From: Candidatus Omnitrophota bacterium
GTDB taxonomy: Bacteria > Omnitrophota > Gorgyraeia > Duberdicusellales > Duberdicusellaceae
Direction: 5' to 3'
DNA length: 64,000 nucleotides
Assembly (NCBI GenBank): GCA_021159015.1
Contig: JAGGSQ010000069.1
Location: 1,332 to 65,331, forward strand
Shown: positions 24,425 to 44,343 of the stretch, one piece after another
How the letters are laid out: each line of letters begins with the position of its first letter
Position numbering within the stretch: the stretch's first letter is position 1
Position numbers and translations under genes: made by a program
The notes under the pieces: model-generated
The model's database searches: none
What the model was told of the DNA's origin: nothing
Seen by the model: only the letters and a program-made list of their open reading frames with translations

Positions 24425-24742
24425 ATGCCAGAGTTTGCAAGTCCCTTTTCCGGTCTTACCCCCGCAAAGAAACTAAGCAGCGAAGAATTGATCCGGGCCA
24501 TCCGCTTCATGGTAGCAGCAGAATACGAAGCCGTACAGATGTATATGCAGGTGGCAGAATCAACCGATAACAAATTAGCAAAAGCAGTACTAAAAGATAT
24601 CGCCGACGAAGAAAAAGTTCATGCAGGAGAGTTTTTGCGCCTTTTAAAGGCTCTAGAGCCGGAAGAAGAAAAGTTTTATCAAGAAGGCGCAGAAGAGGTA
24701 GAAGAAGAAATTAAAAAGACCGGCCGAAAAGGAAAATTTTAG
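24425..24742 (+). CDS. small ferritin-like/rubrerythrin-like diiron-domain protein
   Basis: AAEYEAV...DIADEEKVHAGEF matches the E...EExxH half-site pattern. An AGGAGG RBS sits 6 nt upstream. 105 aa, one of the few plus-strand genes. Confidence 0.6.
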   Translation: MPEFASPFSGLTPAKKLSSEELIRAIRFMVAAEYEAVQMYMQVAESTDNKLAKAVLKDIADEEKVHAGEFLRLLKALEPEEEKFYQEGAEEVEEEIKKTGRKGKF

Positions 24743-28720: not shown

Positions 28721-29599
28721 TTACCAGCGGGAACGCATTAAGGCTTTTACGGTAAAATTATATTCACTAACCCCCTGGTCGTACTTTGTATCTTTCATCA
28801 AAATATCAGTGCGGTGGCCGGTCCGCAAATCTTTACACTCTAAAGACATCTGAGCAGGATATTTCTTATCGCCGGCTTTAGTCCAGACCCATTCCCGAAA
28901 AAGCGTCTTAAACAGCTTCCCGTTTTTATCGTAATACTCCTCAAAAATGCCGCCGCCGGTATCTTTATCTATCCACACCTTTCTTTTGGCATAATACCAG
29001 TGCGGCCTTTGGGGATAGCATTCTATAATAAAACACGGCTTGCCGGCGAGTTTAGTTTCTCCTGTTGCTTCAAACTTGTAGCCTTTAAAATTTTCTTCCC
29101 CAACTAATTTATAACTTTCATCTTCAAAACGGCGGGTAGACACCTCTTCTACGGTCATATCCGAGCCCAGAAAAGCATCGTCATTCTGAGAAGCAGAAAT
29201 CTTTCTTACCTTCTTAAGGGAAGGCAGCCAGAGCCAGACATCCTGCTCTCTTTTGGCATCTTCATAAGTCCAAGTTAGAACCGCTAATCCTTTAAGCGCT
29301 GTAGGGTAAGTAAAAGCTACGATATCTTTGTAAGAAATTCCCTCCTGACCTCCTTTTATCATCCGCATTCTTTTCCATATTCGTTTGCGCGTAAATCCAC
29401 TGCGGTCTACATATAAAACCTCCCCTATCTGCATATAATCACGGGCGAAAAAGGAATATTTGTTGTAGTAGGCAATGCGCATAATCTCATCGGCACTCAT
29501 TCCCTCCTGCGGTCGGTAAACTTTATAGTATTCCAGATTGGCCGCAAAAACTAAACTGCCAGCAAACAGCATTCCCCACAAAAGTCCTAGTTTTTTCAC
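28721..29599 (-). CDS. LolA-like outer-membrane lipoprotein-sorting / lipid-carrier protein (DUF1329-like)
   Basis: WLWLPSLKKVRKISASQNDDAFLGSDMTVEEV is characteristic of the LolA-like proteins encoded next to MMPL exporters. The likely start is the GTG (VKKLGLLWGMLFAGSLVFAANL signal peptide) at 29599, overlapping the MMPL stop. The ORF track extends the start to 29704. Confidence 0.6.
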   Translation of the reverse strand: MKKLGLLWGMLFAGSLVFAANLEYYKVYRPQEGMSADEIMRIAYYNKYSFFARDYMQIGEVLYVDRSGFTRKRIWKRMRMIKGGQEGISYKDIVAFTYPTALKGLAVLTWTYEDAKREQDVWLWLPSLKKVRKISASQNDDAFLGSDMTVEEVSTRRFEDESYKLVGEENFKGYKFEATGETKLAGKPCFIIECYPQRPHWYYAKRKVWIDKDTGGGIFEEYYDKNGKLFKTLFREWVWTKAGDKKYPAQMSLECKDLRTGHRTDILMKDTKYDQGVSEYNFTVKALMRSRW

Positions 29600-32046
29600 A
29601 CTCCACCTCCTGTTTTGAAAAAACTTACTTTTCTTCCCCGTCTCTCTACCCCCTTTTTTAATCTTCTCTTTACTCTTCCCCACAAAAAGGCCGGCTTTAG
29701 CCACCAGACCAGCAACGGAACCATTACTAAGGAGATAACCATATTAAGCACCAAGGACAGGCACAAAATTATCCCCAGCTTTGCCTGAAAGAGAATAGGA
29801 GAAAAAACCCATACCAGTATCCCCAGAGAAACTACTGCCCCACTGAAAAATACCGCTTTGCCGCTGGTAATCAAAGTATAATGGAGTATATCCTTATAAG
29901 TATGACGTTTCTGGCGCATCTCATCATACAAACGAGCCAGAATATAAATGCCGTAATTAATCCCCAGCCCTTCGCTTAAAGAGACCAGGGGAAGAATCTC
30001 GGTGGTAATAGAAATCCCCAGAAATCCCAAAAGAGAAAAAATAACTAAGTTGCTAAGAACAAGAGGCAGAAGCAGAAACCAGCCGGCAGTAAAAGAGCGG
30101 TAAATAAAGCTGACATAAAAGAAAATTAAAAGAGAGATAAAGAGAGCATTGGGAAGAATAGTTTTTTTAATGATATCGTTTATGGCATAGAAAATGCCAA
30201 TGTCTCCCCCCGCATAGAGAAATTTTATATCCTTGAATTTATGCTTTTGAAAGTACTGATGCGTTTTCTCCACCGCTAAATTTACCGTAGTTGATTTATG
30301 GTCGCGGAAATCAAATTTAATATTGCAGGATTTCTCGTCGCGGCTGATTAGATGGTCATAATCAGAGGGAAATCCCGAAAGCGTATAAAGAAACCAGTAT
30401 TGGGCAATAACATCGTCTTGGGAAGGAATTTTAAAATATTCTCTCTTGCCAGCAAACATAAACATATTTAAAGCTTTGACTGCATCTACCACGGACAAAG
30501 ACGATCCGACTTGTAGCACCTGCTGCTGGAGATACCTCTGAAAACTATCGATAGCCCTTAATTTATCAGCTTTAAGCAAAGAAGAGGAGGATTTTGCTAG
30601 AATATAGTAGGAATTTGTTCCTCCGAAATTGTCGTTAATAAATTTCTCGGCCCGGTTATAAGGGCTGTGGGGATAAAGATAACTTGAGCCTTCTGTATTG
30701 TCGCCAATAACTATTTTTTTTATCCCTCCCAGAGAAAGCAGGCCGGCAATAATGAAACCCGTAATTAAAATTGTGCCGGCTCTCTTATTCAAAGAGAAAA
30801 TACTTATCTTCGCCAGCATCCTATCTACCCACAGATGCCGTTCTTCTCTTTCCACGGCCAATATTTTAGGCCGGTGCAAAAATGACAAAACACAAGGCGT
30901 AAACATAAAGGAAGTGAAGAAGTTGGCGAAAATGCCCAGCCCGCTGGCCAGAGCCATACTTTTTATGGTAGAAAGAGGCACCATTACCAAAGATAAAAAC
31001 CCGAACCCGTCTGTAAATACACAGGCGAGCCCCGGCAGAAACAAATAGGCCATGGTATTTACTATAGCGTGCTTGCTTTTCATTTTAGGGCTGCGCATTT
31101 CCTCATAATAACGCTTAAGTGTGTGCACAGAATGGCTGATACCTAAAGAAAGAACAATAAAGGGCACCAAGATTGTAGCCGGGTCAAGCCGCAGGCCTAG
31201 AAGTTTCATTGTTCCCATACCCCAGATAGTAGCCATAGAAGAATCTAAAAGAGGCAGGAGTATGCCGCGGCGGGAACGAAAGGTAAAAAACAGAATAAGG
31301 GAAATCACCAGCATACTTACTGCCAATACCTTAAACATAGAAGGAAGGTAAAAATTAAGCCAGCCTTCTAAAATAGGACGGCCGGCAATATAAATCTCGG
31401 TGTTTTTGTCTTCATATTTTTTCTTCAACTTCTGCAAAGTAGAGAATATATAGCTGGTTTTTACTCCCGAATTAAAATCTACCTGGATAAAAGTGGACCG
31501 GAAATCACGCGAGACCATTTTGCCGTAAACATTGGGGTTAATCTCAATTTTTCTTTTCAATTCCTCCCTGCCTCTTTCGTCCTGAGGCGGATAACGCAAA
31601 AGGCGTTCTACAAAAAAACCCTCTTCGTCAGCTACAATATGTTTTATATGGCGGCTGGCTAAAGAATAAACGCGGCTGATATTTACACCCTTAACCAAAT
31701 ACAAATCTTCCGTTAAAGATATCAGCTTATCCAAAAACTTAGCATTAAGAATTGTCCCTTCCTTAACCCGCAGGGCCAAAGATACCTGGTTAAGGCCGCC
31801 GAAGATATGCGTAAGCTGGTGCTGCACTTCTACAAAGGGATGTTTCTGAGGCAGGAAATCTTCCAGGTGTGTTTCTACCTTTATCGTACCTAACACACTA
31901 AGAAAAAATACTGTTAACGCTGTGCAAGCTATAATGATATATATCCGCAGATGCACTATCCTGCGTGCCAGTCTATACTGCCAGCTACTGGTTAGACCTC
32001 TGCTTTCGCCTGAAGCATACTTTATTCTACCGGTGCCTGCTCCCAT
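29596..32046 (-). CDS. MMPL/RND-superfamily exporter (HpnN-like putative lipid exporter)
   Basis: 816 aa with two blocks of ~6 TM helices separated by large periplasmic domains, as in MMPL/SSD-type RND pumps. The start overlaps the upstream aldolase gene by 25 nt. Confidence 0.75.
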   Translation of the reverse strand: MGAGTGRIKYASGESRGLTSSWQYRLARRIVHLRIYIIIACTALTVFFLSVLGTIKVETHLEDFLPQKHPFVEVQHQLTHIFGGLNQVSLALRVKEGTILNAKFLDKLISLTEDLYLVKGVNISRVYSLASRHIKHIVADEEGFFVERLLRYPPQDERGREELKRKIEINPNVYGKMVSRDFRSTFIQVDFNSGVKTSYIFSTLQKLKKKYEDKNTEIYIAGRPILEGWLNFYLPSMFKVLAVSMLVISLILFFTFRSRRGILLPLLDSSMATIWGMGTMKLLGLRLDPATILVPFIVLSLGISHSVHTLKRYYEEMRSPKMKSKHAIVNTMAYLFLPGLACVFTDGFGFLSLVMVPLSTIKSMALASGLGIFANFFTSFMFTPCVLSFLHRPKILAVEREERHLWVDRMLAKISIFSLNKRAGTILITGFIIAGLLSLGGIKKIVIGDNTEGSSYLYPHSPYNRAEKFINDNFGGTNSYYILAKSSSSLLKADKLRAIDSFQRYLQQQVLQVGSSLSVVDAVKALNMFMFAGKREYFKIPSQDDVIAQYWFLYTLSGFPSDYDHLISRDEKSCNIKFDFRDHKSTTVNLAVEKTHQYFQKHKFKDIKFLYAGGDIGIFYAINDIIKKTILPNALFISLLIFFYVSFIYRSFTAGWFLLLPLVLSNLVIFSLLGFLGISITTEILPLVSLSEGLGINYGIYILARLYDEMRQKRHTYKDILHYTLITSGKAVFFSGAVVSLGILVWVFSPILFQAKLGIILCLSLVLNMVISLVMVPLLVWWLKPAFLWGRVKRRLKKGVERRGRKVSFFKTGGGV

Positions 32047-33008
32047 AATTTGAAAGTCCTTACTAATACCGGATACCAGCGGCTCATCTTAGTAAAATCA
32101 CCTTTAGTCTTTACCTTGCCTTGCGTAGAGGCGACAAAAGCATCCAGCTTGCGGTTGAAAACTTTTTTTAATATATCCGCGCGGCCAATGATTAAGAAAT
32201 CCACCCCTTCTGCTTCCTCGCTTACCTTAACTATGCGCCCAGCCTGGTAATGAAAGCAAACTGCCCTGCCGCTATCCTGGTCTTTAACCGCCAGCCGGCA
32301 GGTCAAATCATATTTCCTTCCCAGCTCCTGGGCCTGAGGGTCATTGTTAACCAATTCCGCCAGTTTAGCTATATGCGCGGGTGAAAGCAGTTTGTACTTC
32401 TTTAACGATCCCGGCTCCTGAGGCAGCTCTCTATCCGCGGCCAAAGCGGTGCGGGACTGAGATTTCAGAATCAGGTTTATTTTTGCCTGCTCCTCTAAAA
32501 GTTCAATGAGGCTGAACGCTTCTTTGAAATCCTGGCCTATGCTTACCACCCCGTGCTGTCCTAAAACTACTATATTGGAATCAGCCAGCGCCTCTAAAAC
32601 CGGTGCAATATGGGTAACCGTAGGAGTCTCCTGAGGAACAACTTTTATTTCTCCCAAATAAAATTTCGCCTCAAAAGAAAATATGTCCAGCCTGCCAAAA
32701 TAATGAAAAAAGGCTACTGTATAAGGAGAATGCGAATGCAGGACGACTTTGACGTGAGGGAATTTACTATGTATGCCTAAATGCAAACCCTTCTCGCTGG
32801 TAGCTTCTCCTTTTCCCTCCAAAACATTGCCCTTGCTGTCAACCATAAGAATATCTTCATAAGAAAGCTCTCCCAAATAACAGTCGTGAGAAGTTATAAG
32901 AATACCTTCGTCTACTTTTAAAGAAATATTGCCGCTTCTGGCGCTAACTAAACCCCGTTCATTCAGGCGGCGGGCCCAATAGATTATTTGTTCTTTTTGC
33001 TTATCCAT
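32022..33008 (-). CDS. class II aldolase/adducin-fold protein fused to a C-terminal SCP2-like sterol/lipid-carrier domain (Ald2/DrdA-like)
   Basis: N-terminal half has RRLNERGLVSARSGNISLK and the HSHSPY metal-binding histidines of class II aldolases. C-terminal ~110 aa (DFLIIGRADILKKVFNRKLDAFVASTQGKVKTKGDFTKM) resembles SCP2. I placed the start at MDKQKEQ (ATG 33008). Confidence 0.65.
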   Translation of the reverse strand: MDKQKEQIIYWARRLNERGLVSARSGNISLKVDEGILITSHDCYLGELSYEDILMVDSKGNVLEGKGEATSEKGLHLGIHSKFPHVKVVLHSHSPYTVAFFHYFGRLDIFSFEAKFYLGEIKVVPQETPTVTHIAPVLEALADSNIVVLGQHGVVSIGQDFKEAFSLIELLEEQAKINLILKSQSRTALAADRELPQEPGSLKKYKLLSPAHIAKLAELVNNDPQAQELGRKYDLTCRLAVKDQDSGRAVCFHYQAGRIVKVSEEAEGVDFLIIGRADILKKVFNRKLDAFVASTQGKVKTKGDFTKMSRWYPVLVRTFKLWEQAPVE

Positions 33009-33486
33009 CTCCTTCCTCCTTAATGAGATCAAGCCGAGGCTTCTCGACCTCCCCCAGAAGACTTTCTGCATACATAGGACGTCCGGCTAAAGTAGAAGCA
33101 TCACTATCAGAAAATTTATCTAAATCCAGCTCTGTCCCTGCTGCAAATTTCACATCCACATTGTGATATTTAGCTAATTCATATACATACAAAGAACTAC
33201 TTAAACACAAATATCCATCGTCCATCTTCTTCTGATAAAGAATCAGAAGCTCCTTTATTTTTTGCTGGTAAAAAAGATGCCCCAGCATATTATCAGTACA
33301 ATATAAAAATTCTAAACCAGCAGCAGATAAAGCATCTCTATTCCATCCCAGTCCCAATAAATACGGCCGCAACTCAGGATTTACCAATACGAACCCCCTA
33401 TGAAATTTCTCTTTCAAATAAATAACGGCCTCTTCAGACAAAATTCCCCAAAACAAAACAGCTTTTTTTATATTCGTTATTTCCAT
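33001..33486 (-). CDS. truncated eIF2B/MtnA-like paralog (C-terminal Rossmann-like half only; catalytic motifs absent)
   Basis: ALSAAGLEFLYCTDNMLGHLF...IKELLILYQKKMDDGYLCLSSSLYVYELAKYHNVDVKFAAGTELD parallels the GADR...NKIGTY...VPFYVAA region of MtnA, but lacks the GADR Asp and the upstream CN(T)G Cys. 161 aa. Confidence 0.5.
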   Translation of the reverse strand: MEITNIKKAVLFWGILSEEAVIYLKEKFHRGFVLVNPELRPYLLGLGWNRDALSAAGLEFLYCTDNMLGHLFYQQKIKELLILYQKKMDDGYLCLSSSLYVYELAKYHNVDVKFAAGTELDLDKFSDSDASTLAGRPMYAESLLGEVEKPRLDLIKEEGDG

Positions 33487-34430
33487 TTCCTCTTATCGTT
33501 CAGGCGCAGCTCCTCCAGCCCTACCCAGCCGCTAATCAGTTCTTGGGGCACAATGTCAAAACTGGGATATATAGCCTCTATATTCTCTTTATCAGGTATA
33601 TTCTCTAAAAACATAAAAACTTCCTGCGGGGGACGCTCTTCAATTCCAACCTTTTCTATAGAAAAATCATAAGGATATTGTACAAAAGCATAGACAGGAA
33701 TGTTGTAGATGCCAGCCAGACAGCTTAAAGCATAAGTTCCAACTTTATTAATAATATCTCCCTGTAAATTCGCCCTGTCCGCGCCACAAACTACAGCGTT
33801 AACTTTTTTCTCAGCCATAACTTTAGCAACCTGGTTGTCACAGATAAGAATAGTATTTACCCCTGCTCGCTGCAACTCCCACGTAGTAAGACGTGCTCCT
33901 TGCAGATAAGGACGTGTCTCGCTAACATAAAACCTGTATTCTTTACCTAAATTCCTCAAAGCCTCAGCCAGATAAATTAGCTCCCCGTTAATATTACATA
34001 TGGTAAGAATAGAACTTTGCTGTGGCAAGACCTCAGCTAAGGCGGCGCAGCGCCTGCGGCGGGCTTTGTCAAAACCGTCCAAAAATGTGGCGATTATTTC
34101 AGATAATGGCTTATCTTCTCTCAAAGACTTTTTAAGAAGAGAGGAAAGAGAAAAAAAATCAAAGGTAGGACGCGTGGCTTTGAATTTCTTGGCCACCAAG
34201 TCCGCCAGAGTACTTTTATCCTGGTACTCCTCCTCTAGCAGCTGGCAAGTATAGAAATATAAAAGCACCTGGCCGAAGGCCCGTGTCTTCATCTCGCGCA
34301 GGCAAAACAGGGCATCTTCTAAATTAAGCACCTCCAGATACTTCTCTTCCCAGGGCAGAAGTGTCTCATCCAGAACCAGAATTTTTTTGCCCTGCATCCT
34401 GACTGGAAACGAAAGAGGTGAATTAAACAT
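33477..34430 (-). CDS. mtnA: S-methyl-5-thioribose-1-phosphate / 5-deoxyribose-1-phosphate isomerase (eIF2B-family, MtnA/DrdI-like)
   Basis: LVLDETLLPWEE at the N-terminus. TICNINGELIYLAEA with the catalytic Cys. SETRPYLQGARLTTWEL. CGADRANLQGDIINKVGTY with the catalytic Asp. Confidence 0.75.
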   Translation of the reverse strand: MFNSPLSFPVRMQGKKILVLDETLLPWEEKYLEVLNLEDALFCLREMKTRAFGQVLLYFYTCQLLEEEYQDKSTLADLVAKKFKATRPTFDFFSLSSLLKKSLREDKPLSEIIATFLDGFDKARRRRCAALAEVLPQQSSILTICNINGELIYLAEALRNLGKEYRFYVSETRPYLQGARLTTWELQRAGVNTILICDNQVAKVMAEKKVNAVVCGADRANLQGDIINKVGTYALSCLAGIYNIPVYAFVQYPYDFSIEKVGIEERPPQEVFMFLENIPDKENIEAIYPSFDIVPQELISGWVGLEELRLNDKRKWK

Positions 34431-35163
34431 CTGAATCTAAAACAAATTCGAATACTCCCTTAATCATTTTCTCCTGAGCCTCGAACAGCTTAAAATCAGA
34501 AAAACCTAATTCTCCGGTTATTAGATTATCGGAAGCCAGAAGCACCGCACAACTCTTTTTGCCGTAAAGGTTAGCCAGGGTAACAAAGGGACTGGTCACC
34601 ATATCCACAGCAATGGCCCCTTTGGCGATGTAAGAGTTGACTATTTCTTTTGCCTCCCGGAACAAAGCGTCTGTTGTCCATATGCCGCCTCTATGCACTT
34701 TGCCTTTTTTCTCCATAACTTTACACAGCTTATCTGACAAGTCTTTATCTACCGCAGGCGAGAAATCATCCTTGACATAATAACGCGTAGCACCATCTCC
34801 CCGCAGGATTTTATCGGCAATAATAAAATTTCCTATCTCAATATCTTCTCGCAATGCCCCGCAGGAGCCCAGCCGCACCAATATGTCTATGCCGGCATTA
34901 CAGAGAAGCTCGGTAACAAAGGCGGAGTCGGGAGAATAAAAGCCGCCGTTGCCTACGGTAATCTTTCTGCCCTTATAGAACCCTGTCCAGAAAGTATAGC
35001 CTAAGAAGGTAAAATTCTTCGTCGGCCTCTCCAGCATATCCAGGCACAATTTAGCTCTCTGCGGCTGGCCGGAGACAAGAGCAATCTTGCCAAAATCGCC
35101 TTCTTTGAACTGTAAGTGCTCCAGCAAATCTTTCGGTTTTAAGTGGACATCCCGCTGCATCAT
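34423..35163 (-). CDS. DeoD-type purine/5'-deoxynucleoside phosphorylase (PNP/UDP family I)
   Basis: GQPQRAKLCLDML...TGFYKGRKITVGNGGFY...VRLGSCGAL aligns to E. coli DeoD (GDPLRAKYIAE...TGTYKGRKISVMGHGMG...RVGSCGA). 246 aa. Confidence 0.75.
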   Translation of the reverse strand: MMQRDVHLKPKDLLEHLQFKEGDFGKIALVSGQPQRAKLCLDMLERPTKNFTFLGYTFWTGFYKGRKITVGNGGFYSPDSAFVTELLCNAGIDILVRLGSCGALREDIEIGNFIIADKILRGDGATRYYVKDDFSPAVDKDLSDKLCKVMEKKGKVHRGGIWTTDALFREAKEIVNSYIAKGAIAVDMVTSPFVTLANLYGKKSCAVLLASDNLITGELGFSDFKLFEAQEKMIKGVFEFVLDSDV

Positions 35164-35213: not shown

Positions 35214-36686
35214 TTAGACGTAAAGTTCGTCGGTTTGAGATGCTTTCTCAAAACGTGACATATTCTCCATATAAGAACGGAAGCAAAGCCCTACTAAAGG
35301 ATGATAAATCCTATTGTGCAGTATCCTTTCTACGCGTCCGGGCTTAGAATAGAATTCCCGCAAGGCCCAGGCTCCCAGCCTCCCAATAGCTTCCTGGGAC
35401 AAATGTTCAGTAGGAACCACAGGATGGTGAAAGTCCCAGGTTTTTAAATCGTCGAATTTGACCCAGCCTCTTTCTACATATTTAGGCCATATAGGAGAGC
35501 CAGGCATAGGCGTAAGATACTGTAGGGCGCAGATATCCGGGTCTATTCTGTCTACCGCTTCAAAACGCTTCTTTATTCTATATTCATCATCATTCTCAAA
35601 GCCCATCATCCAGGTAAGGACAGTAGCAATCCCTGCTTCTTTCAATTTAGCTACTGTCTCCTCTACCTGTTCTACGGTAATACCTTTGCCTAACTCCTCT
35701 AACTCTTCGTCCGTGGCTACCTCAATTCCCGCCAAAGCTAAAAAACAGCCTGCCTCTTTCATTTTAGGAAATAAATCTACATCCCGCAGGTAATAAGGAG
35801 CACGGCCTAAAAAGCACCAGGAAACCTTTTTGCTCAGACCCCGCTTAATCATATCCTCAATAAACTCTTCCATGCGCTGACGGGAGACATTGAAGCAGTC
35901 GTCCATCATGGTAACTACTTTTACCCCGAACTTATCGTGAAGAAGCTCCAGCTCGTCCGCTACGAGTTTGCCAGAACGAGCCCGAAAAAATCTTAAATCA
36001 GCGTTTCCCCGCGAGTCAAACTGCGACCACTCATAGCAAAAATTGCAACCGGCCGGACATCCCCGCGAGTTCCAGGTTTCTGTATAATGCTTCCAATAAT
36101 CATGCCCTACATATTTCTCCATAGGAAACAAATCATAAGCGGGCATAGGCAGTTCGTCCAGATTCTTTATTAACCCACGGTAGGAGGTAAGCACTATCTC
36201 TTCTCCCTCACGGAAAGCAAGACCTTTCACCTCTTTTACCTCTCTGCCGGACGCTATTGCTTCCACCAGCTCCACAAAGCTTATGTCCTGCTCTCCTACC
36301 AGACAATAATCAATCCAGGGGTTCCTCCTGAGAATCTGGCGCGGTGCAGAAGCATAAACCAAGCCGCCAGCAATAATAGTAATTTCGGGATACTTCTCTT
36401 TAACCAGCTTGGCTGCCTGATTATAACGGTAAACCACTGCCGCCCCTCCGGTAGTATGCAGAATATCTCCTATATGAATGATGTCCGGACGGGCTTTACC
36501 AATCTCCTCCAGCATCTGCTCGTTGCTCATTTCCCAGGCGCGACAGTCCAGAACCTGCAAAGCATATTCGGGATGCTTCTGGCGCAGAAGCGCGGCTATT
36601 TGCGCCTGCCCTATATTGGGCGCACGGTGTTTCCCCCAGGTTGACCAGGCACCTAAATTGGGCTGAAGAAACATTACTTTCATCAT
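35214..36686 (-). CDS. B12-binding-domain radical SAM protein (class B rSAM)
   Basis: N-terminal cobalamin-binding Rossmann-like domain, then the CPAGCNFCYEW CxxxCxxC rSAM cluster motif. 490 aa. Confidence 0.8.
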   Translation of the reverse strand: MMKVMFLQPNLGAWSTWGKHRAPNIGQAQIAALLRQKHPEYALQVLDCRAWEMSNEQMLEEIGKARPDIIHIGDILHTTGGAAVVYRYNQAAKLVKEKYPEITIIAGGLVYASAPRQILRRNPWIDYCLVGEQDISFVELVEAIASGREVKEVKGLAFREGEEIVLTSYRGLIKNLDELPMPAYDLFPMEKYVGHDYWKHYTETWNSRGCPAGCNFCYEWSQFDSRGNADLRFFRARSGKLVADELELLHDKFGVKVVTMMDDCFNVSRQRMEEFIEDMIKRGLSKKVSWCFLGRAPYYLRDVDLFPKMKEAGCFLALAGIEVATDEELEELGKGITVEQVEETVAKLKEAGIATVLTWMMGFENDDEYRIKKRFEAVDRIDPDICALQYLTPMPGSPIWPKYVERGWVKFDDLKTWDFHHPVVPTEHLSQEAIGRLGAWALREFYSKPGRVERILHNRIYHPLVGLCFRSYMENMSRFEKASQTDELYV

Positions 36687-36697
36687 AAACTCCTTTT

Positions 36698-38254
36698 TCA
36701 GTTTTTTATTCGGTTTTCTGCCATATGCTTCAATCTGCCTTCAGCAATCTTGCCGCTGCGCGTCTTGGGAAGCTCTTTCACAAACTCAAAGTAATGGGGG
36801 ATTTTAAAATGCGCCAGCTTCTTCTTCAAAAATTCTCTTAATTCTTCCTCTTTGACTTCTGTATCTTCTTTACTTACTATAAATACTTTGGGCACTTCTC
36901 CCCGCAAGCGGTCAGAAACACCCACAGCGGCACACTCCTGCACCGCCGGATGCTCGGACAAAGCTTTCTCTATCTCCCACAAAAAAACTATCTCTCCTCC
37001 TACTTTCAGCATCTGCTTCTTCCTTCCGGCAATGTAATAAAATCCTTTCTCATCTCTGTAGGCTAAATCGCCGGTGCGAAAAAAACCCTCTGGCGTAAAA
37101 GAGGCTTCATTTAAAGAGGGATTTTTATAATAGCCTTTGAATACGGCTTTGCCTCTGATTAACAACTCACCTACCTCGCCTTCTTTCACCTCCTCTCCTT
37201 CCTCATTAACAAGTTTTACTTCTACATCGGGCGAAGACACGCCGATACTCTCGATATTAGCAGAATCGGGCGGCGTAACAATGTTAGGAGGAGAAGTTTC
37301 GGTCATCCCCCAACCGTTGAGAAGTTTTGCCTGTGGACAAAGTTTGTGGAATTTCTTAAGCAAGCGCGGCGAAGAGGGAGCGCCAAAAACGACTACATAC
37401 CTCAAGGTTTTTAGATTAAATCCCTCCAAATCTTTAAGGGTAAACAGCGCTACATACATAGAAGGCACTATCCAGAAAAAGGTAATCTTAAATTGCTCAA
37501 TATTCTTAAGGAACTGGCGGGGAGCAAATCTTTCCATTAACACAACCTGCAGACCAAAATATACCATTAACAGAAAATACACCCATCCCCCTGCATGAGA
37601 AAGAGGAATAGCACAAAGAACATTATCGTTCTCATTGATATCGGAAAGGAAATACTTTACTTGCCGCGGCGAATACTCAAGATTGTCGTAAGTAATAACT
37701 ACGGCTTTAGGCTGGCCGGTGGTTCCGGAAGTATAAGAAATTATAGCCTCCTCACCCCGAGCATTGTCTATAAAGGCTCCTGCCTTTTCCTCTGCCCCGT
37801 TCTTTATCAGCTGAGAAAAACTCAAAAAATCACCCTCCCGAGTTTCTTGTGTTTCATCAACTAACACTATCTTCACCCCTGTATCTCTCTCCAGCCTGTC
37901 ATAATTTATATTGATACGCCTCCTGGCAATAAGGATATCTACCTGGGCGTGTTTCAAAATGCTTATTAATTCCTCCTCGCTCAACATAAAATCAAGCGGC
38001 ACAGCACAAAAGTGCAAAGAGAATATAGCCGTGTAGGCTACTATATACTCCCAGCTATTGGGAAGAAATATACCTATGCGTGCCGGTTGGCAAGGAGTTA
38101 ATTCCCAAAGGCCTGCCGCACACTTAAGGCCTAATTGGTGCAGCTGGCCAAAGGTTATTTTTTTCTCTCCTGAAATAAGAGCCACCTTATCAGGGAATAA
38201 TTTACTCTTATTTTTTAGAAGAAGAGTAAAATTAAAGATTTTTCTCTCTTCCAT
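36698..38254 (-). CDS. AMP-dependent acyl-CoA synthetase/ligase (adenylate-forming enzyme)
   Basis: YTSGTTGQPKAVV (AMP-binding P-loop), GWGMTETS, FRTGDLAY and PKTRSGKI motifs. 518 aa. Confidence 0.85.
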   Translation of the reverse strand: MEERKIFNFTLLLKNKSKLFPDKVALISGEKKITFGQLHQLGLKCAAGLWELTPCQPARIGIFLPNSWEYIVAYTAIFSLHFCAVPLDFMLSEEELISILKHAQVDILIARRRININYDRLERDTGVKIVLVDETQETREGDFLSFSQLIKNGAEEKAGAFIDNARGEEAIISYTSGTTGQPKAVVITYDNLEYSPRQVKYFLSDINENDNVLCAIPLSHAGGWVYFLLMVYFGLQVVLMERFAPRQFLKNIEQFKITFFWIVPSMYVALFTLKDLEGFNLKTLRYVVVFGAPSSPRLLKKFHKLCPQAKLLNGWGMTETSPPNIVTPPDSANIESIGVSSPDVEVKLVNEEGEEVKEGEVGELLIRGKAVFKGYYKNPSLNEASFTPEGFFRTGDLAYRDEKGFYYIAGRKKQMLKVGGEIVFLWEIEKALSEHPAVQECAAVGVSDRLRGEVPKVFIVSKEDTEVKEEELREFLKKKLAHFKIPHYFEFVKELPKTRSGKIAEGRLKHMAENRIKN

Positions 38255-38332: not shown

Positions 38333-38551
38333 TTATTTACGCGCTATATCTTGAATATTTAAGGCAATATTAATAAGGATAGAGGTTACACCCAAAATAA
38401 ATACACTTTTAGGAGTGACACTGGTTAAACCTAAATTGTAGTTGATACTCCATAATTTCAAAATAACGCTGGTAACAATAAGGATAAAACCCACGCTTAA
38501 GAAAAAATCTTCGAAAACGCGGTAATAATTTTTAAAACTCCCGCTTTCCAC
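38333..38551 (-). CDS. small 2-TM membrane protein (72 aa), paralog 1
   Basis: GTG start preceded by GGAGGCGAGG. Shares FEDFFLxxGFxLIxxSVxxxL...LGxTxVTxK..F......L.N..LNIQ with the adjacent ORF. Confidence 0.55.
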   Translation of the reverse strand: MESGSFKNYYRVFEDFFLSVGFILIVTSVILKLWSINYNLGLTSVTPKSVFILGVTSILINIALNIQDIARK

Positions 38552-38573: not shown

Positions 38574-38786
38574 TTATACTTTATAAAAGGCCTTCACTAA
38601 ATTCTGGATATTGAGGGACAAATTAAAAAGTAAACAGGTGATAGCTGCCGCAAATATATCTTTAGCCGTAACGGTTGTAAAACCTAAATCATATTCCACA
38701 CCCAATAGCCGCATAGCTACGCTGGCAATTACTAATACAAAACCTGCTCCTAAAAAGAAATCTTCGAATAATTTATATTCTTTCAT
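38574..38786 (-). CDS. small 2-TM membrane protein (71 aa), paralog 2
   Basis: I placed the start at MKEYKLFEDFF (ATG 38786), preceded by GGGGGAGG. The ORF-track extension would overlap the divergent nfeD gene. ~45% identical to paralog 1. Confidence 0.55.
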   Translation of the reverse strand: MKEYKLFEDFFLGAGFVLVIASVAMRLLGVEYDLGFTTVTAKDIFAAAITCLLFNLSLNIQNLVKAFYKV

Positions 38787-38796
38787 CCTCCCCCTT

Positions 38797-38826
38797 TTTA
38801 CTAAAACAGCTTTTTTAGAATATAAT
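38797..38826 (+). promoter_or_regulatory. putative promoter of the nfeD-stomatin operon (TTTACT-18-TATAAT)
   Basis: Consensus -10 TATAAT at 38821-38826. Weak -35 TTTACT 18 nt upstream. About 57 nt upstream of the ATG at 38884. Confidence 0.35.
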
Positions 38827-38883
38827 AAAACCCTTAACCTGTCAACTGAAATTTTAAAGGGAAGCAATTTGACAGCTAAAAAA

Positions 38884-40209
38884 ATGGCAGCTATAATGAG
38901 AACGATGAAAAATTGGTACATAAAGCTTGGGGTAGGAGTTTTCTTTCTTCTTAGCCCCTCCTTTCTATTTGCCTCAACTCTTAATGTCTTAACTATAAAG
39001 GGGCTAATAATAAATCCGGTAATACAGGAATACATAGAAGAAGGTATAAGAAAAACCGAACAAATCCAGGGCTATCTCTTAATTCGCATTGATACGCCGG
39101 GCGGACTGCTGAAGCCTACAGAAAATATTGTAAAAATGCTCCTTAATGCCAGAGTGCCCGTAATATGTTATGTTTGGCCGCAAGGAGCCAGAGCTGCTTC
39201 GGCGGGTAGCTTTATTGCTTACGCCGGTAATATCCTGGCTATGGCCCCTAATACCCACATTGGAGCAGCTCATCCTGTAATAGGAGGAGGGCGCTGGGAA
39301 GAGATAGGAAAGACTTTGCAAGAGAAAATTACTAACGATACCTTAGCTTTGGCCCGTAATATCGCTCACGCGCGCTCGCGCCCTTACTCCTTTATTAAAA
39401 AGACGATAAAAGAAAGCCTTTCTTTTACAGCAGAAGAAGCTAAAGCCCAGAAAGCGGTAGATTTTATTGCCTCTAATCTGAAGGAATTACTAAGAGATAT
39501 CAATAACTTTCATATAGTATTAGAAGGAGACAGAACTATCGTATTGCATACTAAAGATATAGATATAAACTATATAACCTTTAGCCCGCGGCAAAAATTT
39601 TTAAATGCTATAACTGACCCTAACATTGCCTATTTATTATTTAGCTTAGGATTTTTAGCACTACTATTTGAAATAACCCATCCCGGTTTCGGCCTGGCGG
39701 GAGTAAGCGGGATTATCGCCTTACTGCTTGCTTTCTATGCCTTTCAGATTTTACCTACTAATTATACAGGTTTGGCGTTAGTAGGAGTAGGTATAATTTT
39801 TCTCATCGCGGAAGCTTTTACACCCACGTTTGGGCTACTTACAGGAGCAGGATTAATCTGTTTTATCCTGGGATCAGTTATGCTTTTTCCCCATTCTAAG
39901 ATTATACATCTATCACTAAAAACCATTATTCCTTTAGCCGTTTTAGCCTTTATCTGGACTAATTTTATCCTGGTAAAACTAATTCAGACAAGAAAACAAA
40001 GACCTCTCAACGGGAAAGAAGCTCTGGTAGGAAAAATTGGCACCGCCAAGACAAATATTTTGCGCCACGGCAAAGTGAATGTAGAAGGTGAAACCTGGAA
40101 TGCTAAAAGCAGTCGTTTAATTAAAGCTGGTGCGGAAGTAGTGATTAAAAAAGTGGAAGGGCTTAGGTTAATAGTAGAACCACTTATGGTAACAAAAAAG
40201 GAGGAGTGA
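38884..40209 (+). CDS. NfeD-family membrane-bound ClpP-class serine protease (long form, with C-terminal OB-fold)
   Basis: [47 protein letters not shown] is ClpP/NfeD-like. Followed by multiple TMs and a C-terminal beta domain. I placed the start at [11 protein letters not shown] (38884; alternatives 38899/38905). The ORF-track start at 38611 overlaps the divergent gene. Confidence 0.8.
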
Positions 40210-40961: not shown

Positions 40962-42365
40962 TTATTCAGACTTTACTTTCAATACTTCGCGAATAAATTT
41001 TTCTCCTTCTCCCTGTGGATGGAGGCTTCTCTTGATATATATATCTTCCGAAGAAGATAAGTCTACTATATAGCTATGAGCTAAACGGTTGTAGCCTGCA
41101 TCATAGCATATTTCCACTTGAGGTTGTTTAATAAGGGGAGGGTTCTGAGCTACGACCATACCAATATAATTATTATTTAACTTTACTATTGTGCCTAGCG
41201 GCCAAACACCAATCAAAGTAAAGAATCTATCTAACAACACCGGGTCAAACAAGCGACCTTTTTCATTAACCATAATTTGGTAAATTTGCTCTACTAAAAC
41301 TTCACTTTTATAAGGACGCCGGCTACGCAACGCATCGTAAACATCGGCAATAGTTACTAAACGCGAAAGAAAATTCGGAGGGCGCAAAAATCTGCTCCTG
41401 GGATATCCTCCCCCTATTTTAAAATGCCGGTGGTGCTGAAAAGCAATCAAAGGTACGATCTTACCGAAACCTCCTCTCTGAATAAGTAGTTTCGCTCCTT
41501 CTATAGCATGACTTTTAATCCGTTCAAACTCAGCAGCTGATATTTCTGATTTACGGTTCAATAGGTACTTTGAGATATAAATCTTCCCTATATCATGCAG
41601 CAACCCTCCCAGAGTAACTTGCAACAGATTCTCTCCTTCCAACCCTAAACCGCGCGCTTGCAAATTAGTCAAAAGAGCTACATTCAAGCAGTGCACAAAT
41701 GTATAGTCATCGTGTTTTTTAAGAGAACCTATCGCAGAGAGGAAGTTAAGTTGCATGTTATCCTGGGTAACAATACTTTCCGCCATCGCTCGCCACTCCT
41801 CTCCCTGCGACTGCTTGCTAAAAAAATCACCAAAAGCTCCTTCTAAAGTCGCTAAAGACTTTTGGTACTGATTAAGATAAAAAACAAGCTGTTCCCGGAA
41901 GGCAGGAGAAGAAACGAGTTTCTCTTCCTGCGGTGCGTTTTTACTCCTGATTTTATCTGTCTCTATATGAATAATGCCTTTTTTCTTTAAGTATTGAGAA
42001 AAATCATCTCCTTTAAGAGAAATATTCTTGTCGCTGAGAATAATCAAAAATCTTTCTAACTCCTCTTTTGTCAGCCCTCTCTTTATCCGCAGAACTGATA
42101 AGGTACGGTTTTCGAATTCTTTTAGGAAATCTTTCAAGCGTAAGCTCAAATCAAAAAATATCTGGTTCTGATAAAAAACTTCATCTTTTATAAACCCAAT
42201 CTCTATTTCACTTTGTGTACCTAAGGCTACTCTCATCTTATCGTATAAACTGCTTATCTCTTCTTGCGCCCGCGGATGACTGCAAGAGTACATTTTCACC
42301 AGCTGCAAACAGGATGCCAGTTGTTTAACTATATATTGTATATTCTCGTGTTTACTTTCCGGCAT
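40962..42365 (-). CDS. HD-GYP domain protein (probable c-di-GMP phosphodiesterase) with an uncharacterised N-terminal domain
   Basis: LHDIGKIY (HD), AFQHHRHFKIGGGYP (HH...GYP) and ADVYDALRSRRPYK. 467 aa. Confidence 0.8.
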   Translation of the reverse strand: MPESKHENIQYIVKQLASCLQLVKMYSCSHPRAQEEISSLYDKMRVALGTQSEIEIGFIKDEVFYQNQIFFDLSLRLKDFLKEFENRTLSVLRIKRGLTKEELERFLIILSDKNISLKGDDFSQYLKKKGIIHIETDKIRSKNAPQEEKLVSSPAFREQLVFYLNQYQKSLATLEGAFGDFFSKQSQGEEWRAMAESIVTQDNMQLNFLSAIGSLKKHDDYTFVHCLNVALLTNLQARGLGLEGENLLQVTLGGLLHDIGKIYISKYLLNRKSEISAAEFERIKSHAIEGAKLLIQRGGFGKIVPLIAFQHHRHFKIGGGYPRSRFLRPPNFLSRLVTIADVYDALRSRRPYKSEVLVEQIYQIMVNEKGRLFDPVLLDRFFTLIGVWPLGTIVKLNNNYIGMVVAQNPPLIKQPQVEICYDAGYNRLAHSYIVDLSSSEDIYIKRSLHPQGEGEKFIREVLKVKSE

Positions 42366-44343
42366 GAGAAAGCGCCTTCTCCTCTATATTTTTTAAAGCG
42401 TTTGTAGCCTGTTTTATCAACTCTGCCTTAAAAACAGAAAATACTCTGCCTCGCTGTACAAACTCTCTTAAAATATCCGTGGCTTCTTCGATATGGTTTT
42501 TTTTGACTATTGAAATATTCTCTCTAATGAAGCTGTTGCACAAACCAAAAATATTAAACGGTAAAATAAGTTTTCGGAGATATTTTTTTGCTGCAACCTT
42601 ATCTGTCTTAAGCAACCCCCGTAAGGCTGCTTCCCGTACGGGGAGGTATTTATTCAGAACAAAGCGTGCGAAGAAAGAAGCATCAGCCAGGCCTTTTTCT
42701 GCCAGTATTTCTATTGCTTGAGCAAGCACAAACTCACGCCGGCGATAGAAATCCGCTATCCAGAGCAAGGCATTCTTGTTTTTTTCCAAAGGCAATTGTG
42801 CCAGAAAATTCAGATATTCTTTTACCCAAAAAATGTTATCTTTATTAGCCAACAGTTGCTGAGTGCGCCGGACAATAACTGGAGGGGAGGAAAGAGATAG
42901 AAATACTTTGTAGATATGCTCGTAAATAAGCTGGGGGTGACGCATAAGTCTATCCCAGAGACGTTCAATACCTCCTTCCATATTCTGCAAAATCCCACTT
43001 ATCACTATCTTTGCTTTCTGGCTCTTACCAGCCAGACTCAACAAATTATCTAACTTTTCCTTTAGAGCAGTACATACATAATTTACCATATTCTCTCCTT
43101 CTGTTCCTTTATGAGAACGCAGAGAAGAGAAAGTCTCCCATAAATTAGCTAAGCCCTCTATATCTTCCCGCTCTACCATTACCACTAATTCTCTTTTTAG
43201 TTCCTCTGCCAACCAAGGGCTTATATTAGGTTCTAAAAAAAGCATATCTAAAATCATATACAAATATTCCTCCTCTATTTCCTGAAGTTTTACTTCATAA
43301 TGATATTTAGGAACTATCTTGTCTAAAAAGGTCGTAAGTGAATCAAGAAAGCGACAATAGGAAGCAGAAATAAATTTCTCTGTGACAGTTTCTTGCATAA
43401 GCTGTTGGGCAGCTTCTTGTAAAGCATGCAGGCGCCTAGTGTCCATCTGCCTTAATTTCTTCTCTCCCTGAGGAGACAATTTCCCAAAGGGATTTTGTTC
43501 AGTAAGAAAGGCGATTTTTCTTAAAATATCTATATTAAAAGATTTGTCAGTAGAAATAAAATCAAAAAATGATGCTTCCAAATCAGTGCTGCTAATATCC
43601 TGCAGTAGCTTCGCTATCTTGTCCCATTCTAAATTTTCTTTCTTATCAAAATTTCTTCCCAGAAAAACTTTAAGGGCTATCTGCAAGAACTTACCCGTTT
43701 TATCAGGATATTTTTGCTGTAAATAACTTTTAACCTTATCCAACAAAGAAGATAAAGAGCGCGTTTCAATACCTGAGAGTTTCTTCTCTAAAAAATCCTC
43801 TTTCTCAAGCAGATATTCTATTTCCTCTCTGCTCACATTGATACTATCTCTGCTCTCTTTCCTAACCTCTTGGCTAAAAAAATCCCAAAATGCCTCAATT
43901 GCTTCTCCTTCACTATCTAAATAACGCTGATAATCAATCTCTTCTATCTTAGCGTTTCTTACTCTTTGGTTCTCAAGCATTCTTTTTGCTCCCCCCTCTT
44001 TCCATATTTCTCGTGGCGCAGAAGCAAGAATACTAGCTAATATTCTAATTTCTTCTTTACTAATCCCCCGCAGATTTATATGTAAACTTTCTATGCGCCG
44101 CTGATGCAGATAAAGACCCAAGAAGAAGCCTCTTTCATGTTTTATCTCTTCTCCGTTTACTATTATAGATTGGGGAGTAGCATAGATATCCAGAGAAGAA
44201 GCTAGAGAGCCAATCTGTTTCAAGTACTGGTAGAATTCCTCTATGGTCTTCTGGAAACTAGGATGCTGGGGAGGATACATAGCAATGCGGTTAAATAAAA
44301 CTCCAAAGTGGCGCGAGACTTCTCCTGCCCTTATCTTAGCCAT
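42352..44343 (-). CDS. large hypothetical cytoplasmic protein (663 aa), translationally coupled to the HD-GYP gene
   Basis: No recognisable catalytic motif. Helical and acidic. Its 3' end overlaps the HD-GYP start by 14 nt. Confidence 0.6.
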   Translation of the reverse strand: MAKIRAGEVSRHFGVLFNRIAMYPPQHPSFQKTIEEFYQYLKQIGSLASSLDIYATPQSIIVNGEEIKHERGFFLGLYLHQRRIESLHINLRGISKEEIRILASILASAPREIWKEGGAKRMLENQRVRNAKIEEIDYQRYLDSEGEAIEAFWDFFSQEVRKESRDSINVSREEIEYLLEKEDFLEKKLSGIETRSLSSLLDKVKSYLQQKYPDKTGKFLQIALKVFLGRNFDKKENLEWDKIAKLLQDISSTDLEASFFDFISTDKSFNIDILRKIAFLTEQNPFGKLSPQGEKKLRQMDTRRLHALQEAAQQLMQETVTEKFISASYCRFLDSLTTFLDKIVPKYHYEVKLQEIEEEYLYMILDMLFLEPNISPWLAEELKRELVVMVEREDIEGLANLWETFSSLRSHKGTEGENMVNYVCTALKEKLDNLLSLAGKSQKAKIVISGILQNMEGGIERLWDRLMRHPQLIYEHIYKVFLSLSSPPVIVRRTQQLLANKDNIFWVKEYLNFLAQLPLEKNKNALLWIADFYRRREFVLAQAIEILAEKGLADASFFARFVLNKYLPVREAALRGLLKTDKVAAKKYLRKLILPFNIFGLCNSFIRENISIVKKNHIEEATDILREFVQRGRVFSVFKAELIKQATNALKNIEEKALSHAGK

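Follow-up and report, generated by a model that had tools for sequence, protein, structure and literature searches.

What a class B (B12-binding) radical S-adenosylmethionine (SAM) enzyme does when its gene directly follows that of an acyl-CoA ligase is the question raised by a locus of Candidatus Omnitrophota bacterium, contained in the 64,000-nucleotide stretch of contig JAGGSQ010000069.1 that was analysed here (hereafter the window). The initial annotation treated the two genes as one unit at positions 35214-38254 and, pointing to the export genes downstream, suggested the synthesis of an unusual membrane lipid. The pair is indeed found there, tightly spaced on the minus strand, and both open reading frames (ORFs) carry the expected Pfam domains, but the unit drawn around it stops too early, as eight co-oriented downstream genes were omitted. 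Ligase and radical SAM gene head a run of ten co-oriented, closely spaced minus-strand genes reaching from 38254 to 25744 (Table 1). The four genes between the radical SAM gene and the export genes, and an aldehyde dehydrogenase gene, had been passed over, though they form a nucleoside breakdown route of the dihydroxyacetone phosphate (DHAP) shunt type. The answer we prefer, to which we give slightly less than an even chance, is that the operon couples a BchE-like, SAM-hungry tailoring radical SAM enzyme to a dedicated salvage of 5'-deoxyadenosine. It builds on the observed gene content, domain identities, catalytic residues, co-orientation and linkage across phyla.

Enzymes of 5'-deoxynucleoside breakdown

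Family calls were made from Pfam and NCBIfam profile scores against curated cut-offs and from sequence matches in the PDB, with most, not all, of the ORFs of at least 120 aa scanned. The phosphorylase has its best PDB matches in B. anthracis DeoD and the hexameric 5'-methylthioadenosine phosphorylase of S. solfataricus (1JDS), and scores 102 bits on DeoD, 43 bits on HpnG (cut-off 187) and 17 bits on futalosine hydrolase (cut-off 125). Equivalents of Arg24, Arg87, Ser90, Ser203 and Asp204 are invariant in 39 orthologues, with the phosphate and purine sites intact, and the residue that contacts the 5'-OH (His in the purine nucleoside phosphorylase of E. coli) is Met in 26 of the 39 cluster phosphorylases, which fits a 5'-deoxy substrate.

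The isomerase reaches 173 and 165 bits on the NCBIfam MtnA families, and since this is below the cut-off (173 vs 271), it is regarded as a divergent MtnA member. Its best PDB matches are the MtnA structures 1T9K and 2YVK, and the TICN and GADR motifs, which we take to carry the catalytic Cys and Asp of MtnA, are aligned and conserved. An AMP/ribose-1,5-bisphosphate pathway was rejected, because the isomerase scores only 80 bits on the ribose-1,5-bisphosphate isomerase model against 173 bits on MtnA. The following 161-aa protein matches the isomerase's ETRPYLQG with its own ELRPYLLG, its orthologue at locus L086 (L numbers denote related loci) reaches PF01008 at 2e-13, and it is kept at the same position in 19 of 80 loci. 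The best solved relative of the aldolase is 6BTD, the 5-deoxyribulose-1-phosphate aldolase DrdA of Bacillus thuringiensis; the metal-binding His residues and the acid/base Glu are invariant, as belongs to a class II aldolase of the DrdA/Ald2 kind. Every member of this cluster aldolase family, distant ones included, carries an SCP2 domain.

A phosphorylase, an isomerase and an aldolase constitute the published phosphorylase variant of the 5-deoxyribose/DHAP shunt (Beaudoin 2018, PMC6079011; Huening 2024, PMC10986504), and judged by sequence the three window enzymes make up a shunt of this type, with activity predicted on 5'-deoxyadenosine, for which such a shunt is the established route. The described shunts (MtnP or MtnN plus MtnK, MtnA/DrdI, Ald2/DrdA) and the window operon have the same three chemistries in the same order, i.e., nucleoside phosphorolysis, isomerisation of an aldose-1-phosphate to a ketose-1-phosphate, and class II aldol cleavage to DHAP and an aldehyde. 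The operon departs from them in its hexameric DeoD-type phosphorylase with a D-M-V motif, in the truncated isomerase paralogue and in the SCP2 domain on the aldolase, and further in the added aldehyde dehydrogenase, the CoA ligase that is often present, and the genetic tie to a B12-binding radical SAM enzyme; none of these departures is described in the two papers. Database searches for distant homologues of the phosphorylase and the aldolase gave close cluster members only, none of them paired with a different SAM-using enzyme.

The last gene of the operon encodes an aldehyde dehydrogenase with the motifs PYNVP (Asn), KPSE, ELGG (general-base Glu) and GQIC (Cys). Since it carries the Asn, Glu and Cys of hydrolytic aldehyde dehydrogenases, a flux from aldehyde to acid is supported. 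The reverse, biosynthetic flux (from an acyl-CoA through an aldehyde and a ketose-phosphate to a nucleoside) was considered and rejected on account of the same hydrolytic residues and the lack of acylating features, except for a weak LuxC match.

From these enzymes we infer the substrates of the operon, plain 5'-deoxyadenosine as the nucleoside, and the direction of flux, and the following course of events may be envisaged. The ligase would activate a carboxylic acid larger than acetate to a thioester or adenylate, and this could be the acid substrate of the radical SAM enzyme, in the way that esterification by BchM comes before BchE. An apolar substrate would then undergo one or more radical steps on the radical SAM enzyme, each spending SAM and releasing 5'-deoxyadenosine; with BchE as a guide, the chemistry may be a methylation, or else an oxidation or cyclisation without oxygen. 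The phosphorylase would split the inhibitory 5'-deoxyadenosine into adenine and 5-deoxyribose-1-phosphate, the MtnA-like isomerase with its truncated paralogue would give 5-deoxyribulose-1-phosphate, the DrdA-like aldolase would release DHAP and acetaldehyde, and the aldehyde dehydrogenase would convert acetaldehyde to acetate, while the Ame-type RND/LolA-like/DUF1302 set would export the apolar product.

Table 1. Genes of the operon in the order of transcription (window positions).
Predicted product	Position	Strand	Remarks
ANL acyl/aryl-CoA ligase, first gene	36698..38254	-	518 aa; Pfam AMP-binding (E 1e-78) and AMP-binding_C
Class B (B12-binding) radical SAM enzyme, BchE-like	35214..36686	-	490 aa; Pfam B12-binding and Radical_SAM
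Hexameric DeoD-type purine/5'-deoxynucleoside phosphorylase	34423..35163	-	Pfam PNP_UDP_1
MtnA/DrdI-like aldose-1-phosphate to ketose-1-phosphate isomerase	33477..34430	-	Pfam IF-2B
Truncated IF-2B paralogue, probable isomerase partner	33001..33486	-	161 aa; no family at default thresholds
DrdA-like class II aldolase with C-terminal SCP2 domain	32022..33008	-	ORF reaches 33071; likely start Met22 at 33008
HAE3-type RND inner-membrane transporter, AmeD-like	29596..32046	-	Pfam MMPL and sterol-sensing domain; TIGR00921 HAE3 190 bits
LolA-like/DUF1329 periplasmic protein, AmeB-like	28721..29704	-	Pfam LolA_like and DUF1329
DUF1302 outer-membrane protein, AmeA-like	27305..28705	-	Pfam DUF1302
NAD(P)-dependent hydrolytic aldehyde dehydrogenase, last gene	25744..27207	-	Pfam Aldedh E 3.5e-112

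The radical SAM enzyme, the ligase and the export genes

With PF02310 (B12-binding) at residues 21-140 (37.4 bits, cut-off 32.1) and PF04055 (Radical_SAM) at residues 207-368 (E 3e-17), the enzyme classifies as class B radical SAM by both sequence criteria, and cobalamin binding is predicted. The cluster motif CPAGCNFC (CxxxCxxC; C210/C214/C217) is invariant in 23 homologues. Its top curated family is BchE (TIGR02026), which it matches with 218 bits (E 2e-64) over residues 4-437, and as the cut-off is 481 bits, the protein is by its sequence BchE-like but not BchE. The initial annotation had named a tight grouping with a cofactor clade such as BchE, in the absence of the usual operon partners, as telling against its own idea; BchE is the closest curated family, at a score too low for membership. 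No bch/chl or photosynthesis genes are present among the scanned window ORFs or in the related loci.

With BchE the enzyme shares the B12-binding plus radical SAM architecture and, in its relatives, a PCP_red-like helper that adjoins or is fused to it; it differs in falling below the trusted cut-off, in having no chlorophyll genes nearby and in its host lineage, as these Omnitrophota are non-phototrophic. The helper is a small protein downstream of many cluster radical SAM genes (e.g., L003, 11580..11855), which is PCP_red-like (PF08369, 30 bits, just under the cut-off) and DUF2621-like; it is fused to the radical SAM C-terminus (approx. 85 aa) in P0070 and P0082 and is absent from the window. 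A reaction of the BchE type uses several SAM per turnover. At L085 (8001..9473) a lone radical SAM paralogue is flanked on one side by cytochrome c biogenesis genes (ResB, CcsA) and by genes for glutamyl-tRNA reductase and multihaem cytochromes, and on the opposite side by another radical SAM gene and NrdD/NrdG. Taken with the similarity to BchE and PCP_red, this context hints that some members of the family have a link to tetrapyrroles.

The lipid-modifying families that were scored lie further away. HpnJ (TIGR03471) gives 142 bits against a cut-off of 578, HpnR (TIGR04367) 91 bits against 650, and the lipid B12-radical SAM model TIGR04072 85 bits against 360, while HpnP is absent from the matches; P-methylases, BzaD and HpnR are all near or under 120 bits. 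No model of Tes, GrsA/B or Mss is among the 17 NCBIfam matches, a comparison of models in which no reference sequences took part. Solved structures of B12-binding radical SAM enzymes match weakly (TokK, 51 bits). The enzyme is thus outside HpnJ, HpnR and HpnP, and neither a squalene-hopene cyclase nor hpn genes were found in the window ORF scans. A hopanoid-type substrate, which the initial annotation had considered, finds no footing in these scores, the best family being that of a cofactor enzyme.

The best NCBIfam match of the ligase is PRK06187 (390 bits, cut-off 476), followed by MenE-type families; every equivalog model stays far short of its cut-off, and the cut-off of the FadD/long-chain ligase model is not reached either. 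On sequence grounds it is a FadD/MenE-like member of the ANL superfamily to which no single specificity is assignable. The closest PDB entry is FadD-1 of A. fulgidus (3G7S, 230 bits), with acetyl-CoA synthetase lower; the motifs TSGTTG, GWGMTET and SGK are present, and Gly stands where acetyl-CoA synthetase has its acetate-gating Trp (Trp414 of Acs). Because of this replacement an acid larger than acetate is plausible, and a role as acetate activator was rejected given the FadD/MenE-like character, the lower score of acetyl-CoA synthetase and the Gly at the gating position. The ligase is the outlier of the operon, with 44-49% identity to every other cluster ligase, whereas in the same relatives the radical SAM enzyme has 73-83% and the phosphorylase 62-79% identity, and the relatives' ligases are mostly 49-81% identical among themselves. 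These values suggest that the window ligase may have been replaced or changed in specificity. A generic, unlinked FadD, which the initial annotation had kept in mind, does not describe it, since homologues at this identity occur in the same clusters across phyla.

The three export genes correspond to the DUF1302, DUF1329/LolA-like and HAE3 RND set of AmeABCD, the apolar monoterpene efflux system of Castellaniella defragrans (PMC6394551), and the operon co-encodes all three components of such an HAE3 tripartite set, whose cargo can be predicted only as apolar; the AmeC gene (COG4447/BNR-like) of that system was not seen in the window operon. Fitness data from Pseudomonas link the DUF1302, DUF1329 and HAE3 families to fatty-ester metabolism or envelope export. 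The true start of the LolA-like/DUF1329 gene is probably a GTG near 29599, ahead of the signal peptide. Because the aldolase bears SCP2 and an Ame-type efflux set lies within the operon, an apolar substrate or product is plausible, and to this extent the export-based idea of the initial annotation holds; the membrane lipid is improbable, as most relatives point to an aromatic polyketide.

The unit in related genomes and its surroundings in the window

Of the candidates scored in a protein search, 951 are homologues of the radical SAM enzyme at E<=1e-10, most of them from Omnitrophota, and in a scan of GTDB species genomes a relative is encoded at at least 517 loci; the closest ones, at 80-83% identity, are in Omnitrophota metagenome-assembled genomes (MAGs), e.g., 'Omnitrophica bacterium 4484_171'. 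The window proteins and the proteins of a neighbouring polyketide synthase (PKS) cluster were mapped onto 80 related genome loci, 32 of which have at least 9 kb on either side of the radical SAM gene. These loci form a supercluster of shuffled order and constant content, with all 645 co-located homologue matches on the strand of the radical SAM gene. One block holds ligase, phosphorylase, isomerase, small paralogue, aldolase-SCP2 and aldehyde dehydrogenase, with the radical SAM gene separate; the other holds the PCP_red-like protein, an ApbA-type reductase, ketosynthase (KS), chain length factor (CLF), acyl carrier protein (ACP), a PF04199 cyclase, an SRPBCC cyclase, MFS, SDR, Amidohydro_2 and sometimes CBM_11.

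Among the 32 loci with full flanks the shunt is present in 19, namely with PKS genes near the radical SAM gene in 15, with export genes in 2 and on its own in 2, while 5 loci of the Velamenicoccus type have PKS only and 8 have a lone radical SAM paralogue. The five PKS-only loci appear to have a second radical SAM paralogue and the shunt further upstream, as L038 suggests. Over all 80 loci a ligase homologue is beside or near the radical SAM gene on the same strand in 25 and export genes in 6-9, and the aldehyde dehydrogenase is nearly always, the ligase often, present in the clusters. Shunt and aldehyde dehydrogenase have the widest range of lineages and cluster types with the radical SAM gene of all operon genes, across phyla and in spite of the shuffled order. 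The shunt accompanies the radical SAM gene in Omnitrophota, Deferribacterota and Desulfofervidaceae: a Deferribacterota MAG (L002) has the minimal form of radical SAM gene, phosphorylase, isomerase, small paralogue, aldolase-SCP2 and aldehyde dehydrogenase, and Desulfofervidaceae have ligase-radical SAM-phosphorylase-isomerase variants.

The ligase gene directly adjoins the radical SAM gene in every window-type operon that is long enough (L008, L014, L005, L090-L095, L097 and L098), and the linkage of the pair that the initial annotation proposed to look for in metagenome bins of the same lineage was recovered there. The neighbourhood of the two genes is thus not accidental. A metagenome scan gave ten further window-type operons with the order ligase, radical SAM, phosphorylase, isomerase, small paralogue, aldolase, aldehyde dehydrogenase, RND, LolA-like and DUF1302, one of them (L097) from the window species itself (96-99% protein identity). 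In the window species, L097 included, the aldehyde dehydrogenase gene stands behind DUF1302, and in all other window-type operons directly after the aldolase gene; compared with L008, L014 and L090-L095, this looks like a local rearrangement in which the efflux trio was inserted between aldolase and aldehyde dehydrogenase.

PKS genes are absent from the flanks of the ten metagenome operons, and tblastn found no KS, CLF, ACP, cyclase, SDR or amidohydrolase in the 64-kb window. A type II PKS (KS/CLF and ACP) is near the radical SAM gene in approx. 44 of the 80 related loci, and in most Omnitrophota the radical SAM gene and the shunt are inside such a cluster, which comprises KS/CLF, ACP, two cyclases, a ketoreductase (KR) and a decarboxylase-like amidohydrolase in a total of approx. 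18 genes. KS1 keeps the active-site Cys and CLF (KS2) has Arg there. Since the unit is part of a type II PKS cluster in most relatives, an aromatic polyketide is indicated in preference to a modified membrane lipid.

In clusters with a single radical SAM gene this gene is within the PKS tailoring block (the KR/amidohydrolase or the CLF/ACP interval) and not by the phosphorylase gene. Clusters of the Velamenicoccus type apparently have two radical SAM paralogues and one shunt, and the window enzyme is 56-60% identical to the shunt-distant paralogue and 44-48% to the shunt-adjacent one. Two or three paralogues are found in some genomes (L001/L011, Ca. Velamenicoccus archaeovorus CP019384; L038; L009/L030/L053), located after the aldehyde dehydrogenase gene, after Amidohydro_2 at the far PKS end, or standing alone. 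In the complete Omnitrophota genomes L087 (CP070684) and L088 (CP070807) the cluster is split, with ligase and phosphorylase genes overlapping or 10 nt apart; the split block reads ligase, phosphorylase, PCP_red-like, 150 aa, ApbA fragment, away from the radical SAM and PKS genes, and ApbA is apparently broken into short ORFs. Outside the main pattern, flavoenzyme genes lie by the shunt genes in L042 (1722..3769) and L087 (1187..3147); their products are an FMN_red protein and an Amino_oxidase protein similar to phytoene desaturase or protoporphyrinogen oxidase, and L087 also carries a CobA/BtuR cob(I)alamin adenosyltransferase.

Between the TGA of the ligase and the ATG of the radical SAM gene there are 11 nt (aaaaGGAGttt, including a ribosome-binding site), one fewer than the 12 nt given by the initial annotation. 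Promoter and terminator scans of the operon performed no better than on shuffled sequence, and because they were uninformative, the operon limits were set by gene spacing and synteny. Searches for a riboswitch or RNA leader gave only tRNAs at Rfam gathering thresholds in the window and in L002, L003, L008 and L014. Upstream of the operon are a divergent NfeD/SPFH pair and two small membrane ORFs. The latter, a 72-aa ORF (38333..38551) and the C-terminal approx. 70 aa of a 153-aa ORF (38574..39035), are tandem paralogues on the minus strand directly upstream of the ligase gene and overlap the implausibly long, TTG-started N-terminus of the opposite-strand NfeD ORF; since their conservation goes no further than L097, a contig of the same species, they were left out of the unit.

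Downstream and elsewhere in the window the scanned ORFs are housekeeping genes (PAC2, YjeF_N, EF-G, PurH, Rnf, glycine cleavage, LipA/LipB). Immediately 3' of the aldehyde dehydrogenase gene, on the same strand, is a PAC2-family gene (proteasome assembly chaperone-like, 24739..25734), followed by genes for a YjeF_N protein and a PDZ-M48 peptidase, none of which is beside the operon in relatives. A complete-looking Rnf operon (RnfC, D, G, E, A and B-like) and a separate block of glycine cleavage, LipA and lipoate-protein ligase genes occupy 4837..9622 and 44397..50298, respectively, LipA being another 5'-deoxyadenosine-producing radical SAM enzyme within the window. Two large ORFs, 42352..44343 (663 aa) and 52999..55086 (695 aa), have no significant Pfam family.

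Explanations compared and their meaning

The salvage of 5'-deoxyadenosine is supported by the DrdA and MtnA affinities of the shunt enzymes, by the linkage of shunt and radical SAM gene across phyla, by the likeness of the radical SAM enzyme to BchE and by the window radical SAM enzyme being nearer to the shunt-distant paralogue. A tailoring role of this enzyme is supported because it sits among PKS tailoring genes in most clusters, and two radical SAM paralogues to a single shunt fit a shared by-product service. Several points weigh against salvage. None of the 39 cluster phosphorylases keeps E-M-E as its ribose motif, all of them having D-M-V, an invariant Glu-to-Val exchange for which salvage offers no explanation; with acetaldehyde as the aldehyde, nothing is left for the SCP2 domain to do; the ligase, although of a non-acetate type, shows translational coupling with the phosphorylase in the split clusters; the minimal Deferribacterota operon leaves the radical SAM enzyme's own substrate and product without a further dedicated gene; and in the full-text literature no published DHAP-shunt cluster with a radical SAM enzyme, an aldehyde dehydrogenase or a CoA ligase was found.

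In a rather unlikely alternative, for which HpnH and MqnE are the models, the radical SAM enzyme would join its 5'-deoxyadenosyl radical to R, an apolar acceptor that could be an alkene, an enoyl thioester or an aromatic polyketide. The adduct would be trimmed by the phosphorylase, which removes adenine, by the isomerase, which gives a ketose-1-phosphate, by the SCP2-aldolase, which yields DHAP and R-CH2-CHO, and by the aldehyde dehydrogenase, giving R-CH2-COOH for conversion to a CoA thioester by the ligase, so that in net terms SAM would serve as a two-carbon carboxymethyl donor and the thioester as a building block, e.g., a PKS starter where a PKS is present. In this scheme every core gene has a necessary role, the gene order from the radical SAM gene through phosphorylase, isomerase and aldolase to aldehyde dehydrogenase is the order of reactions in the window type and in L002, and SCP2 on the aldolase, the conserved aldehyde dehydrogenase, the non-acetate ligase and its coupling to the phosphorylase are all accounted for; the invariant non-canonical ribose-site residues of the cluster phosphorylases also speak for it.

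A radical SAM gene next to one for a PNP_UDP_1-family enzyme has two precedents, HpnH/HpnG of the adenosylhopane route and MqnE/MqnB of the aminofutalosine route; in each the second enzyme takes the purine off a nucleoside derived from SAM, and both are adenosylations. They differ from the window, however, as HpnH and MqnE have no B12 domain, and only the pairing of genes is shared; no hopanoid or menaquinone genes accompany the window pair. The same series of phosphorylase, isomerase, aldolase and aldehyde dehydrogenase also turns 5'-fluorodeoxyadenosine into fluoroacetate. This pathway of Streptomyces cattleya (fluorinase, FlB phosphorylase, isomerase, aldolase, aldehyde dehydrogenase) works on a SAM-derived 5'-substituted 5'-deoxyadenosine and ends in X-CH2-COOH, the aldehyde dehydrogenase converting fluoroacetaldehyde to fluoroacetate. 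It differs in that its SAM-using first enzyme is a fluorinase, whereas the window has a B12-binding radical SAM enzyme, and X may here simply be H. The DHAP-shunt literature cites this route as far as fluoroacetaldehyde.

Adenosyl transfer has to contend with the fact that we know of no radical SAM enzyme with a B12 domain that adenosylates, HpnH and MqnE not being class B. The phosphorylase is much nearer to DeoD than to HpnG or futalosine hydrolase, the best solved relative of the aldolase works on a plain 5-deoxy sugar, the radical SAM gene is among tailoring genes and away from the phosphorylase gene in most PKS-linked clusters, the window enzyme resembles the Velamenicoccus paralogue far from the shunt more than the adjacent one, and no acceptor can be named.

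The remaining probability is divided between a lipid function with unrelated neighbours, a catabolic role and something not yet conceived. That the ligase activates a fatty acyl group, which the radical SAM enzyme methylates or cross-links for export to the envelope, with shunt and aldehyde dehydrogenase as unrelated housekeeping of methionine or purine salvage, was the spirit of the initial annotation, and it draws on the FadD-like ligase, the apolar export genes within the operon and the SCP2 domain. We consider it improbable, since the supposed housekeeping genes follow the radical SAM gene through more lineages and cluster types than any other operon gene, while many loci lack the ligase or the export genes. 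In addition, the radical SAM enzyme has no affinity to lipid-modifying clades beyond the weak HpnJ score, Pfam and NCBIfam scans of the operon gave no lipid-assembly gene (no acyltransferase, glycerol-lipid or isoprenoid genes), and most relatives lie inside PKS clusters of the aromatic type. The degradation of an environmental or prey-derived apolar or nucleoside substrate, be it exogenous 5'-deoxynucleosides as a carbon source, on which E. coli is published to grow through the DHAP shunt (as in extraintestinal pathogenic strains), or anaerobic alkene/terpene adenosylation with CoA activation and beta-oxidation, would suit an aldehyde dehydrogenase and FadD-like ligase as a typical catabolic ending and a DUF1302/DUF1329/HAE3 set best known from anaerobic monoterpene metabolism, but is very improbable given that no uptake transporter or beta-oxidation gene is among the scanned window ORFs, that most relatives have the unit inside a PKS cluster, which is biosynthetic, and that one SAM spent per substrate molecule is costly.

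All parts of the operon belong, by sequence, to known families, and we found the pairing of a B12-binding radical SAM enzyme with 5'-deoxyadenosine breakdown described nowhere; nor did full-text literature searches turn up a DHAP shunt tied to such an enzyme, to an aldehyde dehydrogenase, to a CoA ligase, to an SCP2 fusion or to a type II PKS. 5'-Deoxyadenosine, which radical SAM enzymes form as a by-product, inhibits them, and no description of a dedicated, co-encoded disposal for a single enzyme was found in the literature read. If salvage is true, the operon would show clearly, at the genomic level, a biosynthetic radical enzyme that brings its own clean-up line, and the BchE-like enzyme would be a heavy consumer of SAM, perhaps one that oxidises or cyclises aromatic polyketides without oxygen in strict anaerobes. 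It is doubtful, though conceivable, that SAM is a two-carbon building block and R-CH2-CO-CoA primes the adjacent type II PKS in most Omnitrophota; if adenosyl transfer is true, it would be a new way to build carbon skeletons from SAM (a radical "carboxymethylation") and would join the hopanoid and futalosine routes as a third kind of pathway that incorporates the adenosyl group, with a class B enzyme for the first time. Besides its occurrence in other anaerobes, the unit is conserved in hundreds of species of Omnitrophota, a phylum with hardly a cultured representative, and the polyketide cluster of approx. 18 genes that most of these species carry resembles core metabolism more than an antibiotic of sporadic occurrence.

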